Part shown: positions 2,820-57,791 of the stretch, in pieces | Layout: each line of letters opens with the position of its first letter | How positions within the stretch are numbered: the stretch's first letter is position 1 | DNA from: an uncultured Bdellovibrionales bacterium | Lineage (GTDB): Bacteria > Bdellovibrionota > Bdellovibrionia > Bdellovibrionales > SG-bin7 | DNA: 64,000 nt | Reading direction: 5' to 3' | Assembly (NCBI GenBank): GCA_964498095.1 | Contig: CAZCFY010000001.1 | Location: 59,386 to 123,385 of the forward strand | Program-made: the position numbers and the translations under genes | Notes under the pieces: generated by a model | The model's database searches: none | Told to the model about the DNA's origin: nothing | The model's input: the letters and a program-made list of their open reading frames with translations, nothing else

Positions 2820-5060
2820 TTATAAGCTAGCTAAAACTTCAATGAGCCGCGCTTTATCAATTGGTTTTGTAATGTAGTTTGTGAAGCCGGAGCGGAGAGC
2901 CTCTTCTTTATCCGTTTTCATCGCGTGGGCGGTTACCGCGATTATGGGTTTGTCGTAACCCTGTTTACGTAAAGCGTGAGTTGCTTCATTGCCGTCCATT
3001 CCCGGCATTTGAATATCCATAAGGACAACGTCATATTTTCCTTTTAGCGCCGCTTCAACTCCGGTAATTCCATCAGAAGCTTCAACGACATTTGCGCCCG
3101 CAAGAGTCAAATAATGTTGCATTACAAAGCGAATATCCGAAGAGTCGTCAACGAGAAGAATATTTTTTCCTGTTAATGGCTGTTCGAGTTTCTGCTGGAG
3201 TGTTTTTTGCATCTTATAAGATGCCAATTTCTTATCAGGAACCGTAATTCTAAAAACGCTACCTTGGCCAATATCGGAGCGTATTAATTCCATATCACCA
3301 CCCAGGGCTTGGGCAACCTTCTTGGACAGCACTAAACCAATTCCTGTTCCGCCAAAACGGCGGCTCATCGAGCTATCGGCTTGAGAAAAAGGCTTAAATA
3401 GTCTTTGTTGCTGTTCCGTATTCATTCCAATTCCCGTATCGGAAACAGTAAATTCGAGATAACTCTTGTCATCCTTACCGGTCATTCTCGTCGTAACCTT
3501 AACTTCACCTCGGCTGGTGAATTTGATGGCGTTACTTATGACGTTGATTAGAATTTGACGAATTCTAAGGGCATCATTAAACGCAAGGTCTGGAATGTGT
3601 CCGCGGTTATCAAAGACAAGAGAAATTCCCTTTTTCTTACTCCTAACTTCGAAGAATGCGTCGAGATCTTTAAGAAGATTCTTTGGCTGAAAAGGTTTTA
3701 CCTCAATTTGTAAGGCGCCAGCTTCAATTTTTGAGAGGTCGAGAATTTGGTCGATTAGAGAAGAAAGGTATTCAGCGTTACCTTGCATCCTTTCTATCAA
3801 GTCTTGCTTTTCTGTGGCCGAGATTTTTTGATCTCCGAGTAAATCTAAAATTCCCAGAATAACACCTAACGGGGTACGAAGTTCGTGATTCATGTTGGCT
3901 AAAAATTCGCTCTTGGCTAAGTTGGCTTTTTCCGCCTCTAGCTGCGCCGACTGCGCGCGGGATAAACTTTGTTTTAAGTCGCGCTCTTTTTGTTGAATAA
4001 GTTCAGCGGCGGCGACAAGATTTTTACCGAGCTGTTCCACTTCACTAACCCGAGAAGGCTCAATAATGGGAGTCTGGCCGCGGGCGAGCAAAGAAGCACC
4101 GGCTGCCGCTCCACGAATTTTCCGGGCAAGCTTGCGGGAATAATTTAGGGCAATTCCCCCGAAAGTTACAATTAGCAGAAGGCCAAAGGCAGAAAGAATT
4201 ATTGAAGCCTTCCGTGTTTGGGCTTCAAAGGTCTTTATCGGAAGGCCGACAGCAACAATCCATCCAGATAGTGGAGACTGATAATAAGAAAAATAGATTG
4301 GCTCACCATCAATGGAGGGAGAGCGGGCTAAACCCATCGGAGAGGTCTTTACTAAGTCCAAAAAAAACCCTGGCGCGGGGCTGCCCACGTAATCATCGGG
4401 ATTTCGGCTTCTGGCAACGATGAAACCGTTTTTATCTATTACTGTGCGGGTCCACTCCTCAGTCGCCCCCGGAGGCGATGTGGTGATTAGGTTTTGCATA
4501 GATTCAGGAGAGACTATGGCGGTTAATGAGTAAGCTACTTTGCCTTTGTCGTAAATCGGCACGCGCACGGGAAAAGCCAAGCGGCCAGGAAAGCTAGCCT
4601 CCGAAGAACCTTTAGCCAAAGTACCAATGGTAGGCAGTCCTGTTGCAAATAGTTCCTCCAAGCTTTTAGGTTCCACCGGTAAACTCATTCTTTCCTCAAA
4701 AGGCTTTAGGGCACTTAAGATTAATTTTAAGTCGCGAGAGTGTAAAACAATGGTTAACCAGTTTGGTTGAGTTTTTAAGATATCTAGCATTTCGTGATGA
4801 AATGCCCGCATGTCCTTGCGCTTTAGCTCGTCATTTGCGGCGATGGCCTGAAGGGTCTTAATCGTTGATTCAAGTTCGCGGTCTAACGAAATAGCTAAAT
4901 CACGCGCCGAGCGCGATAATTGTTGTTCGGAATCAACGCGCTCGTTATTTACCAGCCAGCTCACCAAAATTCCGGCAAAAATAAAAAATGGAATCATGGC
5001 GGCAAGTACTAGCCCCACTAAGTGCAAACTTAAGGCGTAGGATTTTCGCTGAACTTTCAT
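2820..5060 (-). CDS. Hybrid sensor histidine kinase (Cache-like sensor, HisKA, HATPase, REC)
   Basis: Two TM helices. FLANMNHELRTP, QILINVISNAIKFT, DTGIG, GGTGIGL. C-terminal ILLVDD...DIQMP...KP. Confidence 0.93.
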   Translation of the reverse strand: MKVQRKSYALSLHLVGLVLAAMIPFFIFAGILVSWLVNNERVDSEQQLSRSARDLAISLDRELESTIKTLQAIAANDELKRKDMRAFHHEMLDILKTQPNWLTIVLHSRDLKLILSALKPFEERMSLPVEPKSLEELFATGLPTIGTLAKGSSEASFPGRLAFPVRVPIYDKGKVAYSLTAIVSPESMQNLITTSPPGATEEWTRTVIDKNGFIVARSRNPDDYVGSPAPGFFLDLVKTSPMGLARSPSIDGEPIYFSYYQSPLSGWIVAVGLPIKTFEAQTRKASIILSAFGLLLIVTFGGIALNYSRKLARKIRGAAAGASLLARGQTPIIEPSRVSEVEQLGKNLVAAAELIQQKERDLKQSLSRAQSAQLEAEKANLAKSEFLANMNHELRTPLGVILGILDLLGDQKISATEKQDLIERMQGNAEYLSSLIDQILDLSKIEAGALQIEVKPFQPKNLLKDLDAFFEVRSKKKGISLVFDNRGHIPDLAFNDALRIRQILINVISNAIKFTSRGEVKVTTRMTGKDDKSYLEFTVSDTGIGMNTEQQQRLFKPFSQADSSMSRRFGGTGIGLVLSKKVAQALGGDMELIRSDIGQGSVFRITVPDKKLASYKMQKTLQQKLEQPLTGKNILLVDDSSDIRFVMQHYLTLAGANVVEASDGITGVEAALKGKYDVVLMDIQMPGMDGNEATHALRKQGYDKPIIAVTAHAMKTDKEEALRSGFTNYITKPIDKARLIEVLASL

Positions 5061-5184
5061 GGTGCCAGTGTTTTACGTAAAGACCACGGAGTAGTCTACT
5101 TTAAGATTAATGGGTTATGAATACTCCAACGAATTGGGGCAAAACTACCCAGACAAGTTTTCAATAACGATTCTAAGTAGACAG

Positions 5185-5457
5185 TTATTTGTAGCGTTGA
5201 ATGAGATGATAGCCAAAACGCGTACGTACGGGCATGGAGATTTCGTCTACCTTTAAAGCGAAGGCCGCGGAAGAAAAGGCTTCCACCATGCGCCCGTAGG
5301 TAAATTCTCCCAAATCGCCGCCGTTTTTTCCGGAGGGACATTTAGAAAACTTCTGTGCCAGTTCGGAGAAGGATTTACCGTCACCAAGAAGTTTTAGTAA
5401 ATCTTTTGCTTCATATTCGTTAGTTACCAATATGTGGCGTGCCGCGATCTTTTCCAT
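5185..5457 (-). CDS. ppiC: Parvulin-type peptidyl-prolyl isomerase
   Basis: AARHILV, FSELAQKFSKCPSGKNGGDLGEF, FGYHLI. True start is ATG at 5457. Confidence 0.9.
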   Translation of the reverse strand: MEKIAARHILVTNEYEAKDLLKLLGDGKSFSELAQKFSKCPSGKNGGDLGEFTYGRMVEAFSSAAFALKVDEISMPVRTRFGYHLIQRYK

Positions 5458-6544: not shown

Positions 6545-7732
6545 ATGAGATTCAAAACCGTACTTATCGCGCCAACCCTGTTAGTTCTATCCTTTCTCTT
6601 TAATTCCCCCGTATCAGAAGCAAAACCCTACAAGCGGGCGGTTATCTTTTCAGGTGGGGGATATCAGTTTTCCCAGTTTTTAGGGGTCATGGAAGCGCTT
6701 GAAGAGGCCGGCAAAAAACCCGATCTTATCATTGCCTCCTGCGGTGGCGGCCTTGCTGCGGCTTTGGTTGCGAATCTCCCGACAGCTAAAATGCGCCGCG
6801 ATTTTATCATGTCCCCGGGCTTTAAAAATATGCTGAGGTCTACAAACGCAACTCCAAAAATAAATAGCCTTACCTCTCTTATCTCCTGGCTTATGCGCCG
6901 AAAACAAGAAGGAGATGAGCGCTTGGTTCCCAGTATATTTGAGGAGCACCTGGTAAATGTTCCCGATGTCTTGCCCATGGAAGAATTTAATCGCTCGTTT
7001 TCATCGTCATCTCTACCTGTCGTTATCGTCGGCGCGAAAGTATTATTTTCTAAAGAAAAGATAGGTCACCGTTTTACGCCGAAGGAAAAACTTTACCGCG
7101 AAGTGCTATTCACTAGTCCCGACGTGGCTAGATATTTCAAGGAAGTCGTTACATCGCAAGGTACTTGGACGGAGCGGTCGTCCATTGAGTCAAAGGCTGA
7201 AGTGGTTACCGATATTTCTTTAACGGAAGCGGCCCGTGCGGCCATCAGTAGCCCGTTTTTCTTTAGACCTGCATTCCTCAATGGAGAGTACTATGTTGGT
7301 GGGACGGTAAATCTTTATCCGCTTGAGCTCGCAAAATCCCTAGCTGACGAAGTAATAACCAGTTTTGGTGATGATTTTAGTGAAATTGCGGGCGTTCCCG
7401 TTGTTAAAGCTACCTATCAGTTTAATCCCAATGAGCGGCTCCAAAACGTCAATGATATGTATGCCGATTATTGGATTGATAATTCTGACCGCGAGACGTT
7501 CTTAAATAAAAAAACGGGATTTGGTTTAACGAACTCGGGGATGAAAGTTTACTTTAGAATGCCCGCCGATGACGTTCAATTCGATCGCGATGTCATGGCT
7601 CACTTTAACTATGGAAAATCCCGGGCGCTAGAAGCGTTATCACAAAAGAACAAAAATGCAAAGTGCCACATGCGCACCATGAACTCCAAAAACAGTTCAT
7701 GGTGGCTGCGGCAAATGTGTCGGCGGGGTTAG
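6545..7732 (+). CDS. Secreted patatin-like protein (atypical catalytic motifs)
   Basis: Signal peptide, FSGGG oxyanion loop, PDLIIASCGG nucleophile elbow, AARAAISSPFFFRP, YVGG in place of DGG. Confidence 0.8.
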   Translation: MRFKTVLIAPTLLVLSFLFNSPVSEAKPYKRAVIFSGGGYQFSQFLGVMEALEEAGKKPDLIIASCGGGLAAALVANLPTAKMRRDFIMSPGFKNMLRSTNATPKINSLTSLISWLMRRKQEGDERLVPSIFEEHLVNVPDVLPMEEFNRSFSSSSLPVVIVGAKVLFSKEKIGHRFTPKEKLYREVLFTSPDVARYFKEVVTSQGTWTERSSIESKAEVVTDISLTEAARAAISSPFFFRPAFLNGEYYVGGTVNLYPLELAKSLADEVITSFGDDFSEIAGVPVVKATYQFNPNERLQNVNDMYADYWIDNSDRETFLNKKTGFGLTNSGMKVYFRMPADDVQFDRDVMAHFNYGKSRALEALSQKNKNAKCHMRTMNSKNSSWWLRQMCRRG

Positions 7733-16538: not shown

Positions 16539-17045
16539 CTAGAAACACGCATATTTGTTTGGGCCCTGGTTTCTGGGTTTATAGGGGATCAGGCCAAGGG
16601 ATTCCAACGTATTGCGAACAATGTAGTTGCGAACAATGTGGAGCTCCCTTTTCCACGACGTCAATAAGCGGGAATATAGGAGCCGTGACCAAAATTTTCC
16701 AAAGGCCCGGCCCTTTTGCGCTTGAGTTACCCGGCGAGCGATTAATCCTGCAATGACCCGAAAAAAGTTTTGCAAACTTCGCCGCTTCTTTCCACGAATC
16801 AAGAGGTGGATGTGGTTTGAACAAATCGCTATCTCGAACACCGATATCTGATATTTTGCTGCCCATGTCCTAATGAGTTTCTCAATGTATCGCTGATAAT
16901 TTAACAGGGATAGTTTTGCCTTGGCCTTTTCGGAGCGCATTACGACATGCACCGGTAGCTTTGTGTTTAGTGGTCTGTGGAGTTTACGTTTACCGCTTCG
17001 GATTTCTCCTCCATGTTCCAAACGGGGTTTGCTAAAGAGCTGCAT
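16539..17045 (-). mobile_element. IS200-superfamily HUH (Y1) transposase, RAYT/REP-associated type
   Basis: HVVMRS, CSNHIHLLI (HUH), FWSRLLYSR, RNYIVRN (catalytic Tyr). Start at 17045 or 17105. Confidence 0.82.
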
Positions 17046-17093
17046 TTGCTTATTGCGGGGGTTACTGCGGGGTCGGCTTTTGGTTTTCGTTCG

Positions 17094-17277
17094 GGGCAAT
17101 GTCATTTTTTGGGAAAGGCTGCAAACGGCGATTCTGGCTCAGGCAAAAGGAGTTGCGCGACGGCGAAAAGTCTGCCCGGCTGCGGGATAGGTTTGCCCGC
17201 GAACCAAACTTTCGCAAAAATGGAAAATGCAAGAATCTGCCTGGGGGCAATGTCATGTTTACCCCGGGCAATGTCAT
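17094..17277. repeat. Three 12-bp direct repeats GGGCAATGTCAT upstream of the transposase
   Basis: Exact copies at 17094-17105, 17245-17256, 17266-17277. Confidence 0.85.
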
Positions 17278-48681: not shown

Positions 48682-48726
48682 GTAGAACCGGAGAACCCGT
48701 TGAACTACCAATCTCATTTTAGAAAT

Positions 48727-48785
<59 letters not shown>

Positions 48786-48878: not shown

Positions 48879-49220
48879 GTGATAAAGCAAGGACCTCTGA
48901 GCATTATAGTCTATGAAACAGCCGAAGGAAAAAGGCCCTACTCTGATTGGATCAAAAATCTTCGCGACTCGACAACAGTTGCTCGGATTAGGGCCAGAAT
49001 TGATCGTATCGAAGAAGGAAACTTAGGCCAGTATAAAGCTTTAGGCACGGGGCTTTTTGAATTTAAGTTTAATTTCGGATCTGGTTATCGTGTCTATTTT
49101 GCTGTTGATGGTGACAAGATTATTTTAATTCTTTCGGGCGGAGACAAAAGCTCGCAGCGAAAAGATATTCTTAAAGCCCGTGAATATTGGACCGACTATC
49201 TTATGAGGAAAAGAAAATGA
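48879..49220 (+). CDS. Type II toxin, RelE/ParE superfamily (HI1419-like addiction module killer)
   Basis: YET..GK.P...W...LRD......I..RI.R...GNLG..K.LG.GL.E.....G.GYRVYF...G..IIL...GGDKSSQ..DI.KA..YW. Confidence 0.92.
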   Translation: MIKQGPLSIIVYETAEGKRPYSDWIKNLRDSTTVARIRARIDRIEEGNLGQYKALGTGLFEFKFNFGSGYRVYFAVDGDKIILILSGGDKSSQRKDILKAREYWTDYLMRKRK

Positions 49221-49546
49221 AAAAAGTAAAAGTATCAAAAAAATTGCCTGCTGTTGATTACCGAGAAAGTCTTATTGAAGAGCTCAAAGGCGACGAAAAA
49301 GCGCAATACATGTACTTGAAAGTTTCTCTTGAGGAAAATGGCGACATGCCAGAAGTTTTCCTTAAAGCCGTTGAAACAGTAGCTAAAGCCCGTGGGTTTA
49401 GTAACTTTGCTAAAAAAACGGGCTTAAACAGGGAAAATCTTTATCGCATATTTTCAAATGAAAGAACTCCAAGGCTTGAGTCATTGGTTAAAATTTTGGA
49501 TGCTCTTGGTTTTAAACTTACTATTACTCCGAAGCGTGCTTCTTAA
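49217..49546 (+). CDS. Antitoxin, HI1420-like addiction module antidote (HTH)
   Basis: ATGA overlap with the toxin. VAKARG....A..TGLNRENLYRIFS....PRL..L.KIL.ALG.KL. Confidence 0.92.
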   Translation: MKKVKVSKKLPAVDYRESLIEELKGDEKAQYMYLKVSLEENGDMPEVFLKAVETVAKARGFSNFAKKTGLNRENLYRIFSNERTPRLESLVKILDALGFKLTITPKRAS

Positions 49547-49615
49547 AAAGATTTATCTACTGCCAAAAAGAGATTTTCGGATTTTATTAAGGAGCTTGAA
49601 AATGAAAAAGAGTAA
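49547..49615 (+). pseudogene. C-terminal stub of a second (HigB-like) toxin
   Basis: KDLSTAKKRFSDFIKELENEKE* overlaps the XRE gene start; the rest of the gene is absent. Confidence 0.45.
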
Positions 49616-49910
49616 TCAAAAGAAAAATTATGTCGTTGCTAAAAAATCCCAAGAAATCGCTGAAGCTTTAGGTATCACTTCTTCCGTTGATCAAGCTCAT
49701 ATTTCCTATAAAGCCCAACTCTCAGAAATGGCATCAAAGGCTATTGAAAGTTCAAAACATACTGTTAACGAAATCGTCAATCGATCTGGCGTTGCAAGAT
49801 CTAAGGTCTCAGCCATTAAAAATGGAGCTTTGGCTGGAATTTCAATTGATTTATTTATTAGGGTTATCATCTCGACTGGTGCCAAGTTAAATATGAAATT
49901 AGCTGCTTAG
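49602..49910 (+). CDS. XRE-family (HigA-like) HTH protein
   Basis: AAGGAG RBS. VNEIVNRSGVARSKVSAIKNG...ISIDLFIR. Ends KLAA. Confidence 0.78.
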   Translation: MKKSNQKKNYVVAKKSQEIAEALGITSSVDQAHISYKAQLSEMASKAIESSKHTVNEIVNRSGVARSKVSAIKNGALAGISIDLFIRVIISTGAKLNMKLAA

Positions 49911-50002
49911 AATCCATCTTTGCAGATAAACTATAAAAGAGTATAGTAGCACAGATGCCTGAACGCTGCATAAGTGGTGAGATTTTAATTTGGAGGATGA
50001 AA

Positions 50003-50347
50003 ATGGCTTTGCCTGAGCTGACAAAGAAACAAGCTGAAGAAGCCCTCAATTCATTTTTCCAGAAGCGCGTTCCATCGCATGCGCGAGACAAAGTCCGTCT
50101 TGTTTTTTCGTTTCGAGGAAATTCGGTGTCGCTTCTTGAGGAGAGGCCCTATTTTCAAGATCCATCTCAGTGGACGAGTACGCCCGTAGCTCAGTTTCGA
50201 TTCGATCAAGATGACAAAACATGGACTCTGTATTGCCCCGATCGAAATTCCAAGTGGCATGTGTATGATCATGCCAAACCCTCGCGCCAATTCATTCACT
50301 TACTTCGAGCCGTTGAGGATGATGCTACCGGTATTTTTTGGGGCTAG
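50003..50347 (+). CDS. DUF3024 family protein
   Basis: GGAGG RBS. RVP.H.RD.VRL...V.L.E.RP...W...PVAQFR......W.LY..DRN.KWH.Y...DD.TGIFWG. Confidence 0.88.
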   Translation: MALPELTKKQAEEALNSFFQKRVPSHARDKVRLVFSFRGNSVSLLEERPYFQDPSQWTSTPVAQFRFDQDDKTWTLYCPDRNSKWHVYDHAKPSRQFIHLLRAVEDDATGIFWG

Positions 50348-50365
50348 GCGGCTTGCCAAAGAGTC

Positions 50366-50883
50366 GTGTCGTCGAAACATCACATTTACTTGCGCGAAGA
50401 TATTGAGAATCCACAGGGCAGTTAATGCTCTGAAAAAAGTTAAAAATTCTTATACTTTGGCGTTCTTGTCATACCCCCAGTTTCATTATTTTGGTAGATT
50501 CAGCCAAGAAAAAATGACCGTTAAAAACAGCAGTGCGAATATTTTTCCGATTCGAAAGGAGTGGATTTAGGTGAAGTATTCATCTCAGGCAAAAGGGCGG
50601 CAAGAATCGGGGCTCAGTCGGTAAATTTTATGGAAGAGACGGATATAAACGATTTCTCGAGTTTAAACACGAAGCCCAGAAGTCTCGGGTGGAACGCACT
50701 TTTGTGTTGGATGTTTGAGAATCAACAAATCATAGGGCGAAGAAGAAAGTGATAAGTCGCGCAGCTTTGTTTCAGGGCAAAAAGACGTGCAGAAGTATTC
50801 CTGGCTCAATGTGATAATCTTTTCCTTCGACGGTTTTTTATTTTTACGTCTTTACGCAAGTAAACGTGTCGTATCGACGTCAC
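50366..50883 (+). repeat. Element E1: 518-bp non-coding element with inverted 27-bp terminal sites (candidate ncRNA or non-autonomous element)
   Basis: Terminal sites 50366-50392 and 50857-50883. Core 50658-50715 is 57/58 identical to 53377-53434. Confidence 0.85.
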
Positions 50884-51120
50884 ATCCTTAATATCGCGTA
50901 ACCGGGAATTACTGCTTACGGCAGGAATTTGAATTTTGGCACGACTTTTGATGATTATAAAATGAAGTCGAGAAATTGAAGATATATTTAGCTAAGTGTG
51001 ATCATTTATTTGACAGTTATTAGCGAAATTCGTTCTGTCAAAGAAATTTACAATTTTTTTGGCGGCGTGTTTTTAATTAGCAAATTTGTTATCGAAAAAT
51101 ATTTAAGGAGCTTCATATTT

Positions 51121-52971
51121 ATGACAGGTATCCCAGTTTTATCGCGGACTAACTATGAGCGAATTTTATACAAGAGTTGGATAATTCTTGTATTAATCTT
51201 CCAGGGATTCTTTTTAACAAATTTGGCTTCTGCACAGTCAAAAGATTGTTCAGCAGTTTTTCACTCCTATCAATCTATCGAAGATCCTCGGCGAACCTAT
51301 GTTGAACAACTTATATTACGACTTCAGGATCAAGCCAAAAGAAATTCAGTAAGTCTTCTTAAAAGTAAATCTGTTAAGGATTTTGTTGTGGTGGGAGGAG
51401 GCCCTCACGGATTATCATTTACGGCGCTTTTGGAGCAGGGCAATCCCGAAATTAGTGGTGTAGTTATCGATAAAGGAAATGGTCGTTCGCCCATTTGGAA
51501 CGACGCAGGTGATAGCTTTCTCGTTGGACCAGCAGTGAGCCATCGACTTATCGGTAGCGCTGTTCAGCCCGGAGATTTGTTTGCAAAAGAAAGTCCTCGT
51601 CTTCCTGCCTTCACGATTGGAATGGCTTTACAATTCCTAAAAAGTCAGTTGCGTGCGAAACAGGTTCACGAAGATACCGTGGTGGCAATTCGTACCAACG
51701 GAAATCGCGAAAGGATTCAAACTCAAAATGGAATCGAAATTGATACCGACTGGGTTGTTCTTTCAACCGGACTTGGCAGACCACAATTTAAAATTGATGA
51801 TAAAGAATCAGTTGCACTCGTAGAAAGAATTGCAAATTCGCAAGTTCCAAATGACCAAGTACCGAATATTCAGTATGCACTCGATGCTTGGAAACGAGGG
51901 ACACAATCTATAAGAAAAAATCAAGACCCTCTAGCTCCTTATCGTGGGAAGCGTCTTGCCGTTATAGGTGGAGGCGGGGGTGCAAAAACCGAAGTTAAAC
52001 GTCAGTTAAATATTTTGAATTCAAATATTCCACCAAATTTACAAGAGGCGCTAAATCCAAAAACAAATGGGGGCCCTAACTTGTTACATTGGATTGGTAT
52101 CCAGGTAGATGGGTACTACAAGCCAAAAAAAAACCTATCTCCCTTTATTGATTCGAAGCGATTGATGATACACGACTCCCATGCAAAACGGATTTTTGAG
52201 CGGACCAAAATCGATGGTGAAAAAGAATATGTTATAGAAATTTCTCAAAGAGACGGACTAATTCAGGAGATCGTAGTTGATCAAGTGATAATTGCATCTG
52301 GCTTTTTAGGCCCAGAAGCATCTTTACCTTCTGGCCTTAGTTCGTCTGGAGAAAAGCCAATTCTTGACGACGTGATAGTCGATACACCTGATAGGGGTGA
52401 AATCGTAGTGGCCAAAAGAGTTCGTAATAGAAATGTACTTCTCGTAGGTACCGGTGCAGGAATTGAGGTTCCACCTGAAGAGCTGTTAAGTACACGAACT
52501 CCAGTGAGCTTTGCTTCATTAGGTCCACGTATAAGAACTGCCGCAGATTTTATAAGCACAAACTTGAACTACACAAATAACAAGAATATTCCCACTCTCA
52601 GAGCATCGCCTGAAAGAAATGCACCGTCCATTTTCGAATTTCATAAATACTCTAGTGGCATCAGGGTTAAAGATATAAATACAAATCTTTTACGACTACG
52701 TACTGCTATTGCGAGAGAGCTGGGTAAATTTCGTTATTCATCAGAAAATATTGAACTAGAATTTTCCAACGAAAGATTTGGTTTTCAACTAAAGATTTTT
52801 GGTTTTTTAGAGAATGATGCAAAAAGAATTTATGAAGAAATCAAATTAAATTCCGAGCTTATGTCTGCTCTGCAAGAACTTATGGATCAACCTGCACAAA
52901 AAATTAGAGTGAGCGTGAAAACACGCAAAGATGGTCGTGCTGAACCAGAGGGTATAGAAATCAAATTTTAA
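51121..52971 (+). CDS. Secreted FAD/NAD(P)-binding oxidoreductase-like protein
   Basis: Signal-like segment to ASA-QSKDCSAVF. VVVGGGPHG, VVLSTGLG, AVIGGGGGA, DQVIIASGF. Start 51121 preferred over 50998. Confidence 0.75.
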   Translation: MTGIPVLSRTNYERILYKSWIILVLIFQGFFLTNLASAQSKDCSAVFHSYQSIEDPRRTYVEQLILRLQDQAKRNSVSLLKSKSVKDFVVVGGGPHGLSFTALLEQGNPEISGVVIDKGNGRSPIWNDAGDSFLVGPAVSHRLIGSAVQPGDLFAKESPRLPAFTIGMALQFLKSQLRAKQVHEDTVVAIRTNGNRERIQTQNGIEIDTDWVVLSTGLGRPQFKIDDKESVALVERIANSQVPNDQVPNIQYALDAWKRGTQSIRKNQDPLAPYRGKRLAVIGGGGGAKTEVKRQLNILNSNIPPNLQEALNPKTNGGPNLLHWIGIQVDGYYKPKKNLSPFIDSKRLMIHDSHAKRIFERTKIDGEKEYVIEISQRDGLIQEIVVDQVIIASGFLGPEASLPSGLSSSGEKPILDDVIVDTPDRGEIVVAKRVRNRNVLLVGTGAGIEVPPEELLSTRTPVSFASLGPRIRTAADFISTNLNYTNNKNIPTLRASPERNAPSIFEFHKYSSGIRVKDINTNLLRLRTAIARELGKFRYSSENIELEFSNERFGFQLKIFGFLENDAKRIYEEIKLNSELMSALQELMDQPAQKIRVSVKTRKDGRAEPEGIEIKF

Positions 52972-53083
52972 AAATTTTATACTCTCTTTATTTACTACGC
53001 AACGACGCGGATAATATTTGAACAAAGGCCACGCAATTCAACAGGAATCAGCATTGCATAAAGATATCGTTCACTCAGTGGTC

Positions 53084-53591
53084 GTGACGTCGATACGTCA
53101 CGACCACTTGCGCGAGAATAAAAGACTTCCTAAAACCAGTTTAAGTGGCTCAAAATGAGATACGATTTTCTATGGCTACATTTATTGTCCTTCAAATAAA
53201 TAATATTTGCTAATCTAGGATTAACAATGGTGACCTTGAAATACAGCAGCGCGAGATTGTATCACAAAACGAATGGAGTGAGTAGCTGAAGTCAATTTCA
53301 ACTCGAGCGCGAGAGTCGGCAAGGTTCGGGGCAGATCGGTAAATTTCACGTATGGAGACGTATAACAACGAATTCCCGAGTTTAAACACGAAGCCCAGAA
53401 GTCTCGGGTGGAACTCACTTTTGTGTTGGATGTTCGAGATCCAGCTACCATAGAGTATTGAGGAAAGTGATAAGTCGCGCAGCCTCGTGAAGGTAAAGAG
53501 ACGTGCTGAAGTACTCTAGGCTCAACTTATTTCGGTTTTCTGTGTCCACATTTTTTCACCAGCTCAAGTAATCGTGACGTATCGACGTCAC
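53084..53591 (+). repeat. Element E2: 508-bp non-coding element, colinear homolog of E1
   Basis: Terminal sites 53084-53110 and 53565-53591; their outer 18 bp are exact reverse complements. Left end extends to a 14-bp-arm hairpin 53077-53108. Confidence 0.85.
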
Positions 53592-54170
53592 TCATTTCGA
53601 ATTAATATCGAGAGTAACCAGACTGTAAATCTTTCCATGCAATTTTCCTCTGCAAACCGGAAAGCTCGATTTGGGATTTCAGTCCATGATTTAAGAGAAC
53701 TCGCGGAGTCTTAGGTTTTAAAAAGCTCATTTGATCGGCAGAGACCGAAAACAGTGATGTTTGGTGCGAATTTGTTCTTTTGTATTTGATTTGCATTTTG
53801 TGGATTGAACTCCGAGAAGTTGCCGAAGAATGAGAAACTTGGGCTGATAGAGCCAAATGTGGGTTAAAAAAGTAAGTTTTAGATTTTTGACAAAGCCATA
53901 GCCGGTGATTTCCAAGCGGAAGATTTGGATTTTTTGCGGGCTAAAGGATTTTGGAAAATTTCTAAAAAAAAGAGTCATGTACGTTTAGTTGTGATTGATT
54001 TTTGCGCCAGAAACAGCGCGGTTGGCGGGTAAATTCGATTAGAAAAGATTTTTTGCGAAAAATGCAGATTTACAAAAATCATGGTACCTAGGTACCAGAA
54101 ATTTGAGCCTTAAGGTACCAACGATAATTTTTCATATTCTTATGTTAATTAGTGATTTTAAGTAGTTAGA

Positions 54171-55904: not shown

Positions 55905-56558
55905 TCAAAAACTCGTACCCAAATTGTCCGGCTTTGAAGAGCGTAAAAGGTTTTTGTTTTCATCAATTGTCCATGTGTCGAGACCAGTTAAAAAGCTTTC
56001 AGTGGCTATATCACAAACGCCCTCATCTAGGTGGGCATGGGCTTCAGCTAAAAACCCAGTCGAGTCAGCACCGGAACCAGCTGTGCCGCGGAACTGGATC
56101 AATCCATCTAAATTAAAACAGGCTGACGGGGCACAAGTCCATGTAATGCCACTGCTACAAATTGCGGCTCCGCCCACACCACATGTATTTATACAAGTTG
56201 CGCTTCCAAGCGGGCCACCATTGGCAGGCACAAACGCATTATCATTAAAAAATCCAAAATTATAGTACAACGTGCCATCGGCGCTGAAACCGATTTGATC
56301 AAGCCTTGAGGAATAGGAGTTATATTCCGCGAAAAATGTCTTTTCGAATACGTAGAGGTGGCCTAGAGTAGACCTAGCATCTGAAGCCTTGGCTCGCAAG
56401 AGGTAATTGTGAAAGTTTGGTATTGCAATCGAAGCTAAAATGCTAACAATTGCGATAGTCACCATCAAATCAATTATTGAAAAGCCATATTTACTGTCTG
56501 ATCTCGAGTTACAGAATTCGATAATCATTTCTTCCATTATCACCACTTTATTTTTCAA
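55905..56558 (-). CDS. Type IVa pilin-like protein (PilA-like)
   Basis: G|FSIIDLMVTIAIVSILASIAIPNF, RAKASDAR..L..LY..EK.FFAEYN.Y, Cys-rich C-terminus. Asp, not Glu, at +5. Confidence 0.85.
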   Translation of the reverse strand: MKNKVVIMEEMIIEFCNSRSDSKYGFSIIDLMVTIAIVSILASIAIPNFHNYLLRAKASDARSTLGHLYVFEKTFFAEYNSYSSRLDQIGFSADGTLYYNFGFFNDNAFVPANGGPLGSATCINTCGVGGAAICSSGITWTCAPSACFNLDGLIQFRGTAGSGADSTGFLAEAHAHLDEGVCDIATESFLTGLDTWTIDENKNLLRSSKPDNLGTSF

Positions 56559-56785
56559 TTGGAAAGATAAAATCTTACGAACCGCTGAAAGGGCTCCCCA
56601 TACAGTCTAAAACCAATCGTTGCAAATTGAGACCGCCGTCTCAAAAATGCGTGCAGATCTTTTATACGATTTTTGAGACTTAAACACCCCTCTATGTGCC
56701 ATAAGTATATATGCAGCAATGGGCCGGCATCTCAATTGCTTAATTGTTTCGTAGGTACCGGGGGACGGCGTATGAGGGATGTAAG

Positions 56786-56812
56786 GTTAATTTCGGCCCC
56801 CAATGCCGATAG
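56786..56812 (+). promoter_or_regulatory. Sigma28-like -10 GCCGATAG, 6 nt before ATG 56819
   Basis: 7/8 match to GCCGATAA. -35 is weak (GTTA at N15). Confidence 0.5.
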
Positions 56813-56818
56813 GTAAGA

Positions 56819-57559
56819 ATGAAGTTAAAAAATCAGGGTTTTTCGTTGATAAGTGTGATGGTAGCCGCTGGCGTTGGATTAATTGCGGCGACGGCCCTAA
56901 TTCAACAGATGGTAAATCAAGCTCGCATGATACGCCACCTCGAAAGCAAATTAGAAGCAAATCAGCTTAAACAAGAGCTTGCATTGATGTTAGGAGATGC
57001 TGCAAATTGTGACGCCAGTTTTGGTGGTTTAACCGGGTTGCAAGTAGGCAATATTGGGAGTGACGAATACTCTGATATTACCTCTCAGTTGACTGGTACA
57101 TCTAGACCTCTAAGTCAGTTAAAATCCAGCTATTCGCAAAACAATAGATTCCTCAACATAAACGAAGTAAGAATTTTTAAACCGGTAAACAAACTAGGAG
57201 GAGCCCCCAGTAATGCGTCTCCATATGAAATTAAAATTAAGGTGATTGTTCAAGAAAAAGGAGGTCTTGAGATGATTATGCAAATAGATGGGCCAACTAT
57301 CATACTTAATGTGACTGGCGGTACTATCGATGCTCCTGACGCCTGTGTAACTGGTGGGGGAAGCGCTCCATTTGACGTTAACCTACTAACCTGTAACCAA
57401 AGGGCCCACCCAGGCACGATCACTGCTGATCAGGTATGTAAAAACGAAAACGGGTTTTGTACCGGAACAAGGTATTTTTCCTCTTCGCTTGGAGAATGGG
57501 CTCCGAGAGACTGTACTTACACCCAAGCTGGCGGCTCAGTTCACTGCTGTACCTTTTAA
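56819..57559 (+). CDS. Minor pilin/pseudopilin with prepilin N-terminus
   Basis: KNQG|FSLISVMVAAGVG hydrophobic helix. Cys-rich C-terminus ending CC.F. Confidence 0.8.
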   Translation: MKLKNQGFSLISVMVAAGVGLIAATALIQQMVNQARMIRHLESKLEANQLKQELALMLGDAANCDASFGGLTGLQVGNIGSDEYSDITSQLTGTSRPLSQLKSSYSQNNRFLNINEVRIFKPVNKLGGAPSNASPYEIKIKVIVQEKGGLEMIMQIDGPTIILNVTGGTIDAPDACVTGGGSAPFDVNLLTCNQRAHPGTITADQVCKNENGFCTGTRYFSSSLGEWAPRDCTYTQAGGSVHCCTF

Positions 57560-57709: not shown

Positions 57710-57714
57710 CTCAT

Positions 57715-57791
<77 letters not shown>

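Follow-up and report, generated by a model that had tools for sequence, protein, structure and literature searches.

A putative mobile non-coding element of Bdellovibrionales that carries a predicted structured RNA

In a 64,000-nucleotide stretch of DNA from an uncultured Bdellovibrionales bacterium (GenBank assembly GCA_964498095.1, contig CAZCFY010000001.1, positions 59,386 to 123,385; hereafter the window), a single gene is bracketed by two related non-coding elements, E1 and E2, each about 510 bp long and each bounded by palindromes in inverted orientation. What are these elements, and is the gene between them something that they move? An initial annotation of the locus had considered both a non-autonomous mobile element with a possible structured RNA and a set of recombinase sites that move or invert the whole arrangement as a composite unit. 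Here, we compare E1 and E2 with their relatives in other genomes, and the reading that we favour, with a probability of about 0.68, is that they have diverged independently within a family of mobile elements specific to Bdellovibrionales, whose members are ~510 bp long, non-coding and non-autonomous and carry a structured RNA.

Both elements lie on the plus strand, E1 at 50366-50883 (518 bp) and E2 at 53084-53591 (508 bp), and both are recovered as full-length family members by an nhmmer profile built from ten copies (E 5.6e-130 over model positions 1-514 for E1 and E 5.8e-135 for E2), which finds no further family copy in the window. The alignment between the two is colinear and identical in orientation, and in this, as in their coordinates, the initial annotation was correct. 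Their identity is ~70-73% by BLASTN and 65% in a ten-sequence family alignment, and it is distributed patchily, the left third being hardly alignable while one block of 22 nt, TTTAAACACGAAGCCCAGAAGT, is identical in E1 (50662-50683) and E2 (53381-53402). When up to three mismatches are allowed, the 18-mer GTGACGTATCGACGTCAC occurs at exactly four sites in the 64 kb, which are the two ends of E1 and the two ends of E2 (no mismatch at 53084-53101 and 53574-53591, one at 50866-50883 and three at 50366-50383); it has no match in dinucleotide-shuffled sequence (n=100). All four of the palindromic sites described earlier are therefore found, although that at the left end of E1 (GTGTCGT-CGAA-ACATCAC) is degenerate, with two broken stem pairs. 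The terminal inverted repeats of E1 and E2 have arms of 30-35 nt with 80-90% complementarity, and the inner ends that face the intervening gene likewise form an inverted pair, in agreement with the earlier description.

The relatives of E1 and E2 were drawn from scans of genomes and metagenomes, the loci or contigs from which are numbered L001-L062 and were compared with the window. An exact-word scan with the invariant-loop 18-mer matched 50 genome contigs, and one with the invariant-loop word matched five metagenome contigs; a 24-mer, a word that crossed covarying helix positions, gave no match in the genome scan. True homologs, as judged by BLAST and nhmmer, come from metagenome-assembled genomes (MAGs) labelled Bdellovibrionales, Pseudobdellovibrionaceae or Bdellovibrio, the remaining word matches being chance hits in unrelated phyla. 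In all, ~20 further copies were obtained, essentially all of them in Bdellovibrionales or Pseudobdellovibrionaceae MAGs and in metagenomes. Two contigs with the Bdellovibrionales element (L024 and L039) are assigned to a 'Streptomyces griseus' MAG, and at 47% and 43% GC they are almost certainly mis-binned. Word scans of viral contigs gave no match, nor did a BLASTN search with E2 of plasmid and phage collections. Rfam 15 returned only tRNA matches across the window at gathering score and, at E<=10 over 50000-54000, no match inside E1 or E2, so that the elements are, as first proposed, non-coding and without a named family, and our search of the literature on Bdellovibrio MITEs (miniature inverted-repeat transposable elements) or structured RNAs found nothing relevant. 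E1 and E2 thus appear to belong to a previously undescribed repeat family that is restricted to the Bdellovibrionales lineage. Their nearest relatives lie in other genomes (L006 for E2, at 74.6%; L002 for E1, at 69.9%) and, as they are only 65% identical to one another, the two are independent members of the family and not a duplicated pair.

Family elements are 499-518 bp long, and no open reading frame (ORF) is conserved in position or frame across ten copies or common to E1 and E2. Several MAGs hold two to four copies in unrelated contexts, and a number of contigs (L001, L003, L004, L010, L046, L047 and L053) end within the element, as is expected of a repeat that breaks assemblies. Within one population, the right flanks of copies that are 97-100% identical are of three unrelated kinds (L002, L003 and L004) and the left flanks of two (L001 and L002), and the contexts of copies that are 93% identical (L016, L023 and L041) differ from MAG to MAG. 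The only neighbouring gene families that are common across loci are HigBA pairs and Y2 transposases. In L001, the left end of the element lies directly against a Y2-transposase pseudogene whose first residue is number 250 of 510, and in L039 a 240-bp internal-deletion derivative (4938-5220) has kept both ends. A search of 12 copies at all offsets, for lengths of 2-9, gave no consistent target-site duplication; isolated direct repeats are present in L016 (7 nt) and L039 (8+6 nt) and are absent from sister copies. The family is thus one of several copies per genome in unrelated contexts, with precise ends, no target duplication and no ORF, which upholds the earlier proposal of a non-autonomous repeated element without a shared reading frame or duplication, and from these features we infer that the element is mobile. 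Two smaller observations concern individual copies. The deletion derivative in L039 has an imperfect direct repeat, ATTGCCAG...CCGAAA, on its two sides, one half of it further from the nearby element end than the other, with nothing comparable in sister copies. The full copy in L016 lies upstream of recD2, whereas in L062, from a relative of the L016 genome, recD2 is followed after ~2 kb by an element fragment (7281-7441, model positions 225-389).

Among known systems, the element resembles MITEs, such as the Correia elements of Neisseria, ERIC and RUP, which are likewise small, non-coding, non-autonomous and multicopy in intergenic DNA, have terminal inverted repeats at their boundaries and in some cases bring promoters or terminators with them. 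The element shares with this class a length below ~600 bp without coding capacity, inverted repeats and a presence at unrelated loci, but not a fixed-length target-site duplication. It also differs in having no known parent insertion sequence (IS), in terminal stem-loops that drift in sequence and in its interior: whereas MITE interiors are normally unconstrained, here a fold of ~335 nt is kept across copies that are only 60-75% identical.

The evidence for this fold comes from RNAalifold applied to ten full-length copies with a mean column identity of 75%, some pairs of copies being as low as 59% identical. The prediction contains 86 base pairs, and 94.2% of the paired cells in the alignment are compatible with pairing, against 30-41% when the partners are slid by one to three columns. 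Pairs that have changed on both sides number 32, against 3-12 in the slid controls, and the covariation score is 0.337, against 0.055-0.073; none of 500 shuffles reached any of the observed pairing measures. The best-supported parts are a long-range helix, the helix CYCGAG/CUCGGG around the invariant 22-nt loop, a GUUGG hairpin and a 3' domain with an outer helix, in which six of eight pairs show double changes, and two inner helices. In the core cells, G.U pairs outnumber A.C pairs by 64 to 10, and the folded strand is therefore the plus strand, which is also that of the intervening gene. In copies held out of the alignment, 92-100% of the core pairs are kept in 12 of 13, and most differences from the consensus are still paired (12 of 16 in L024, 11 of 14 in L028 and 6 of 7 in L039). 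The exception is the very diverged L023b, which keeps 62% of the core pairs, probably owing to an alignment problem. On these measures the interior carries a predicted plus-strand structure of ~300-335 nt under purifying selection, and the suggestion of a structured RNA made at the outset is borne out to this extent.

In E1, the predicted core spans 50508-50806 on the plus strand, as supported by the RNAalifold fold, the pair counts, the strand comparison and the held-out copies. Its long-range helix joins 50508-50520 with 50690-50705, the helix CTCGAG/CTCGGG (50656-50661 with 50684-50689) closes the invariant loop at 50662-50683, a hairpin follows at 50706-50726, and the 3' domain is closed by pairing of 50736-50744 with 50798-50806 around 50757-50793. 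The core of E2 is predicted at 53224-53522, also on the plus strand, with the same helices and its invariant loop at 53381-53402. Just upstream of the first core helix, within an otherwise poorly conserved stretch, columns T125, G128, T130 and A131 are invariant and T135 nearly so, with the same pattern in 16 copies, and this T..G.TA...T arrangement matches an extended -10 promoter pattern; on the plus strand, the putative motif reads TGgTAGATT in E1 (50492-50500) and TGcTAATCT in E2 (53208-53216). A T-run follows the core and is preceded by a hairpin in several family members. In E1 this run, TTTTTTATTTTTA (50834-50846, plus strand), is a possible 3' end of the RNA, although the hairpin before it is weak and a terminator scan did not flag it. 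Read from the outside inward, an element would thus consist of a stem-loop, the repeat CGTTTACTTGCGC, a variable left spacer with a small conserved hairpin, the -10-like motif, the RNA, the T-run, the mirrored repeat and a second stem-loop, with the RNA probably transcribed from the internal promoter-like motif.

A conserved fold may instead be used as DNA. In a hairpin-rich element of the HUH type, akin to the palindrome-associated transposable elements (PATEs) of IS200/IS605 or to REPINs, the excised plus strand would have to fold, as do attC sites or plasmid single-strand origins, and no functional RNA would be produced. Such an account would explain the covarying terminal stem-loops that differ between ends and the missing target-site duplication, a strand bias tolerant of G.T suits DNA as well as RNA, and a Y1_Tnp gene, described below, is present in the window; a Breaker-laboratory survey also remarks that multicopy structured motifs may act in DNA form (PMC11109978). 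We nevertheless regard it as rather unlikely, since the invariant extended -10-like motif stands exactly upstream of the first core helix with a T-run downstream, an invariant loop of 22 nt in an architecture of several domains is more to be expected of RNA tertiary structure, and a true 12-bp inverted repeat is foreign to IS200/IS605 ends.

A promoter-like motif between inverted repeats also recalls invertons, in which case a global invertase would flip the ~450-bp promoter-bearing segment. Inverton families share repeats and promoters across loci, as in the Mpi system of Bacteroides, and each element has the 30-35-nt inverted repeats around a segment with a promoter-like motif, E1 also lying upstream of a same-strand gene. 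Against this, the interior is a self-contained, strand-specific structured unit, the genes downstream of the family copies are mostly convergent, the gene downstream of E1 has a promoter-like site of its own (50936-50963), and no invertase was found among the ORFs scanned in the window, so that we consider flipping of this kind very improbable.

The ends are the second structured part of the element. At both ends, read from the outside inward, a weak A-A-N-G-W-Y is followed by a stem-loop and then by the 12-bp inverted repeat CGTTTACTTGCGC, which is present at both ends of all full-length copies and within which ACTTG is invariant. In E1, the left stem-loop occupies 50366-50383 and is followed by its inner repeat ATTTACTTGCGC at 50384-50395, with the family-invariant ACTTG, and the right end (50854-50883) consists of the inner repeat at 50854-50865 and the stem-loop, with its single mismatch, at 50866-50883. 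In E2, the left end (53084-53113) has a perfect 7-4-7 stem-loop at 53084-53101, a palindrome that grows to 14-4-14 (53077-53108) by using flanking bases, and the repeat GACCACTTGCGC at 53102-53113, while the right end (53562-53591) has the repeat at 53562-53573 and another perfect stem-loop at 53574-53591. Across the family, the stem-loops are G+C-rich, with a 7-bp stem and a 3-5-nt loop, and they vary in sequence in ways that keep the pairing (GTGACGT/ACGTCAC, GTGCCGT/ACGGCAC, GTGTCGT/ACGACAC and GTGCCC/GGGCAC), six of the 14 pairs in these terminal helices (helices 1 and 15 of the fold) showing double changes. In a subfamily made up of L016, L018, L022, L023, L041 and L055, the left hairpin, GTGCCGT-CGAT-ACGGCAC, is unrelated to the right one, GTCCCGA-ATG-TCGGGAC. 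Because the sequence drifts while the pairing is kept, and because left and right differ in this subfamily, the terminal palindromes act as stem-loops and not as fixed protein sites. A fixed site for a dimeric protein, such as a recombinase core, would not be expected to vary in this way, whereas a structure read as a hairpin would. The invariant ACTTG and its neighbours, by comparison, look like a sequence-specific site. The flanks on both sides favour A-A-N-G-W-Y (read inward), and in a pair of copies that are 97% identical, 11 of 14 left-flank bases agree; this preference may reflect a short target sequence of the kind that abuts the left end of IS200/IS605 elements, or equally an extension of the repeat.

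This behaviour of the ends bears directly on the proposal that the palindromes are recombinase sites of the pdif type, at which E1, the gene and E2 would move or invert as one composite module. The four sites do alternate in orientation around the gene, as do the short palindromic sites that bracket DNA in the pdif (Xer) modules of Acinetobacter plasmids, and the palindrome has an asymmetric core. A second element-gene-element arrangement, moreover, is found in L023 (4119-6065), where a full copy is followed by a same-strand SBP_bac_3 gene and then, in the same orientation, by a very diverged copy; such clustering therefore recurs, and it would seldom arise if a few copies per genome were placed by chance. 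Yet the diverged copy in L023, in which an inverted repeat centred on ACTTG, AATCTACTTGTTG, and some of the core are preserved, has no terminal palindromes, and in the family as a whole the palindrome is not conserved in sequence, its left and right hairpins being unrelated in one subfamily. Xer sites are 28 bp long and are conserved between modules, with 11-bp arms for XerC and XerD around a 6-bp spacer, whereas the palindrome of the element is 7-4-7 and variable or absent. The bracketed segment of ~450 bp, moreover, is always the same RNA unit and not variable cargo, and its location is chromosomal. Finally, the 65% identity of E1 and E2, neither of which is the nearest relative of the other, is not that of a matched pair, and no tyrosine or serine recombinase was found among the ~47 ORFs scanned in the window. 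Both the pdif-like sites and the composite unit are thus contradicted by the family data, and we hold this explanation to be very unlikely.

The terminal stem-loops may have a further role. In the family consensus, the hairpin together with a closing C-G pair makes an 8-bp stem and is followed, when read from outside at either end, by GUUUACUU, an arrangement similar to that of an intrinsic terminator directed against transcription coming in from outside. The stem-loop and GUUUACUU would then be an inward-facing terminator insulating the element; the left-end hairpin of IS200 similarly doubles as a terminator.

The same observation can be turned into an account without transposition, in which the family consists of paralogous non-coding RNA genes set between facing stem-loop terminators and spread by duplication and by horizontal transfer of islands. 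A consensus hairpin followed by GTTTACTT from either outside is what such genes would show, most copies have a same-strand gene ending before them (10 of 14) and a convergent gene after them (10 of 15), E1 and E2 are old and diverged, and the copies in the window sit in a horizontally acquired island. The wider family fits this poorly: in every context homology extends no further than the hairpins, copies that are nearly identical are flanked differently within one population, one copy interrupts a transposase gene (L001), the deletion derivative retains both ends, contigs break inside the element, and ACTTG and its neighbours are conserved far beyond what a U-tract needs. We judge it unlikely, and return to a mobile element with a structured RNA as the better account.

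If the element moves, it would do so in trans, through an enzyme that reads the stem-loops and leaves no duplication. The leading candidate is an HUH single-strand transposase, as hairpin-reading, duplication-free movement is typical of HUH enzymes, with a site-specific recombinase as the alternative. Among HUH systems, the PATEs of IS200/IS605 and the REPIN/RAYT pairs resemble the element in having terminal or subterminal hairpin palindromes that are read as structure and no target duplication. The ends of the element, however, are symmetric, with a true 12-bp inverted repeat inside the hairpins, and not asymmetric left and right ends as in IS200/IS605; compared with REPINs, the element is much larger, is present in few copies instead of hundreds and has hairpin heads of GTG/GTC in place of GTAG.

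In a Pfam scan of the ~47 window ORFs, neither a recombinase of the serine or tyrosine type nor a DDE transposase was found, and the sole transposase-type gene found in the window is a diverged Y1_Tnp (IS200/RAYT-like HUH) ORF of 188 aa at 16539-17105 on the minus strand (Pfam PF01797, E 2e-11), 33 kb from the elements. Its scores against the NCBIfam IS200 and RAYT models are both below the cut-offs, and it has matches to IS200-family TnpA in the PDB at E ~2e-3 with the HIH motif aligned. No hairpins related to the element ends flank this ORF. Three copies of GGGCAATGTCAT lie at or just upstream of its start codon (~17096-17107, 17245-17256 and 17266-17277).

The Y2 enzymes of the IS91/ISCR superfamily are another group of HUH transposases to consider, as Y2_Tnp (IS91-family) genes or fragments lie within 6 kb of the element at five of ~22 loci. 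CTTG is the target or nick motif of the superfamily, and the invariant ACTTG of the element recalls it. An IS91/Y2 transposon was rejected as the parent: the element is missing from six IS91-like loci that are complete or nearly so and that terminate in a different, oriIS-like sequence of their own, and the element lies either outside the insertion sequence, as in L005, where it is 62 nt beyond the IS91-like end, or truncates a transposase, as in L001. The Y2 genes near the element therefore look like a co-location of mobile DNA and not like parts of it. As a separate observation, four contigs of 2.0-3.7 kb (L056-L059) have mutual overlaps of ~100% identity. L059 has the transposase gene only, whereas in L056-L058 an IS91-like transposase is joined by a 3-hydroxyacyl-CoA dehydrogenase gene and a small ORF, and these three contigs resemble circularly permuted versions of one sequence of ~3.5-3.7 kb, as might come from a small circular replicon or from a tandem array.

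Several points weigh against a mobile element with a structured RNA. The structure was first counted on its own source alignment, and several of the held-out copies are close relatives of those used to derive it. Single-sequence folding energy is no better than that of shuffles (z +1.0 for the E2 core, and also z +0.5), which leaves the case for the fold to covariation alone, and the plus-strand bias, with its G.T wobble pairs, would fit folded single-stranded DNA too. Upstream of the promoter-like motif there is a further small hairpin that covaries, so that the transcript may begin further 5'. None of the four terminal hairpins in the window passes a simple terminator scan. With regard to movement, E1 and E2 appear old and diverged, the left hairpin of E1 has decayed and the mobility of these two copies is not evident; no empty site was recovered through the recD2 orthologues of L016, as homology sets in only with the recD2 start codon and synteny is lost ahead of it; and no autonomous partner or IS with the same ends was seen, there being no extra ends in the fetched loci or the window. 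The Y1_Tnp protein is a candidate for the trans-acting partner on circumstantial grounds.

What, then, might the RNA do? Large bacterial RNAs with well-supported covariation are rare, and HEARO, the bridge RNAs, ROOL and GOLLD, and OLE have led to new biochemistry. HEARO/IsrB and the TnpB omega-RNAs, the bridge RNAs of IS110, GOLLD and ROOL are, like the RNA of the element, large, supported by covariation and carried with mobile DNA, and each had a function that was once unknown or proved to be a cofactor of a transposon. The RNA described here differs from them in having no match in Rfam 15 and no adjacent gene for a partner protein. It also stands alone in an inverted-repeat cassette of its own and shows no guide-like complementarity: on both strands, matches of the RNA core to the left or right flank did not exceed those with shuffled flanks and had no consistent position. 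Since the fold is kept even in copies that are 60% identical, the RNA probably serves the maintenance or spread of the element itself rather than host housekeeping. The retention of a fold at ~60% identity in a cassette that multiplies in genomes of predatory bacteria points to selection at the level of the element, and suggests a role for the RNA in mobility, addiction or defence. A more specific proposal, that the ~335-nt RNA is an obligatory cofactor (a scaffold, guide or ribozyme) for movement or retention of the element, is rather improbable on present evidence; were it true, a mobile cassette that encodes an RNA and stands alone would be depending on an enzyme supplied in trans, a new kind of RNA-dependent DNA mobility distinct from that of the omega-RNA, bridge-RNA and group II systems. 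The role of the RNA is testable directly in culturable relatives of Bdellovibrio, and the element can also help annotators of Bdellovibrionales MAGs to recognise where contigs break and which of them have been mis-binned.

There remains the gene between the two elements, and the wider setting of the locus. The gene (51121-52971, plus strand) encodes a protein of 616 aa with a signal-peptide-like N-terminus and a Pfam match to Pyr_redox_2 (FAD/NAD(P)-binding) that is confined to the N-terminal part, and a promoter scan places its candidate promoter at 50936-50963. In 5.8e9 proteins only the protein itself was found, and among 1.84e9 representatives there are 58 matches at E<=1e-3, the best at 29% identity, so that it appears to be a near-orphan and lies outside the repeat family. 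Exact-protein look-up of this FAD protein, and of the DUF3024, 167-aa and Y1 proteins, gave no record.

E1, the gene and E2 are all contained in an 8.9-kb island bracketed by a 61-nt direct repeat, one copy of which is the 3' 61 nt (57713-57773) of a tRNA-Met gene (57715-57791, minus strand; the whole feature spans 57713-57791) while the other is an exact copy of this 3' part, also on the minus strand, at the far boundary (48725-48785). The GC content of the island is 40.0%, against 44-45% in the flanks, and neither an integrase nor a recombinase was found in it. The intervening gene is probably a bystander or cargo of this tRNA-Met island and not a unit moved by the E1/E2 pair.

The island also contains a HigB/HigA-like pair, a DUF3024 gene and pilin-like genes. 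Before E1, at 48879-50347, a HigB-like (Gp49) gene is followed by an HTH_37 antitoxin-like gene and then by the DUF3024 gene, which matches the PADLOC candidate defence family PDC-S43 (E 7.5e-27); in L018, a homologous HigBA pair lies 66 nt from the element. Beyond E2, at 55905-57559, are two ORFs with type IV pilin N-methylation motifs, one of them with a weak ComP_DUS match, and these pilin-like ORFs occupy the end of the island nearest the tRNA gene, the place in which one would look for an integrase.

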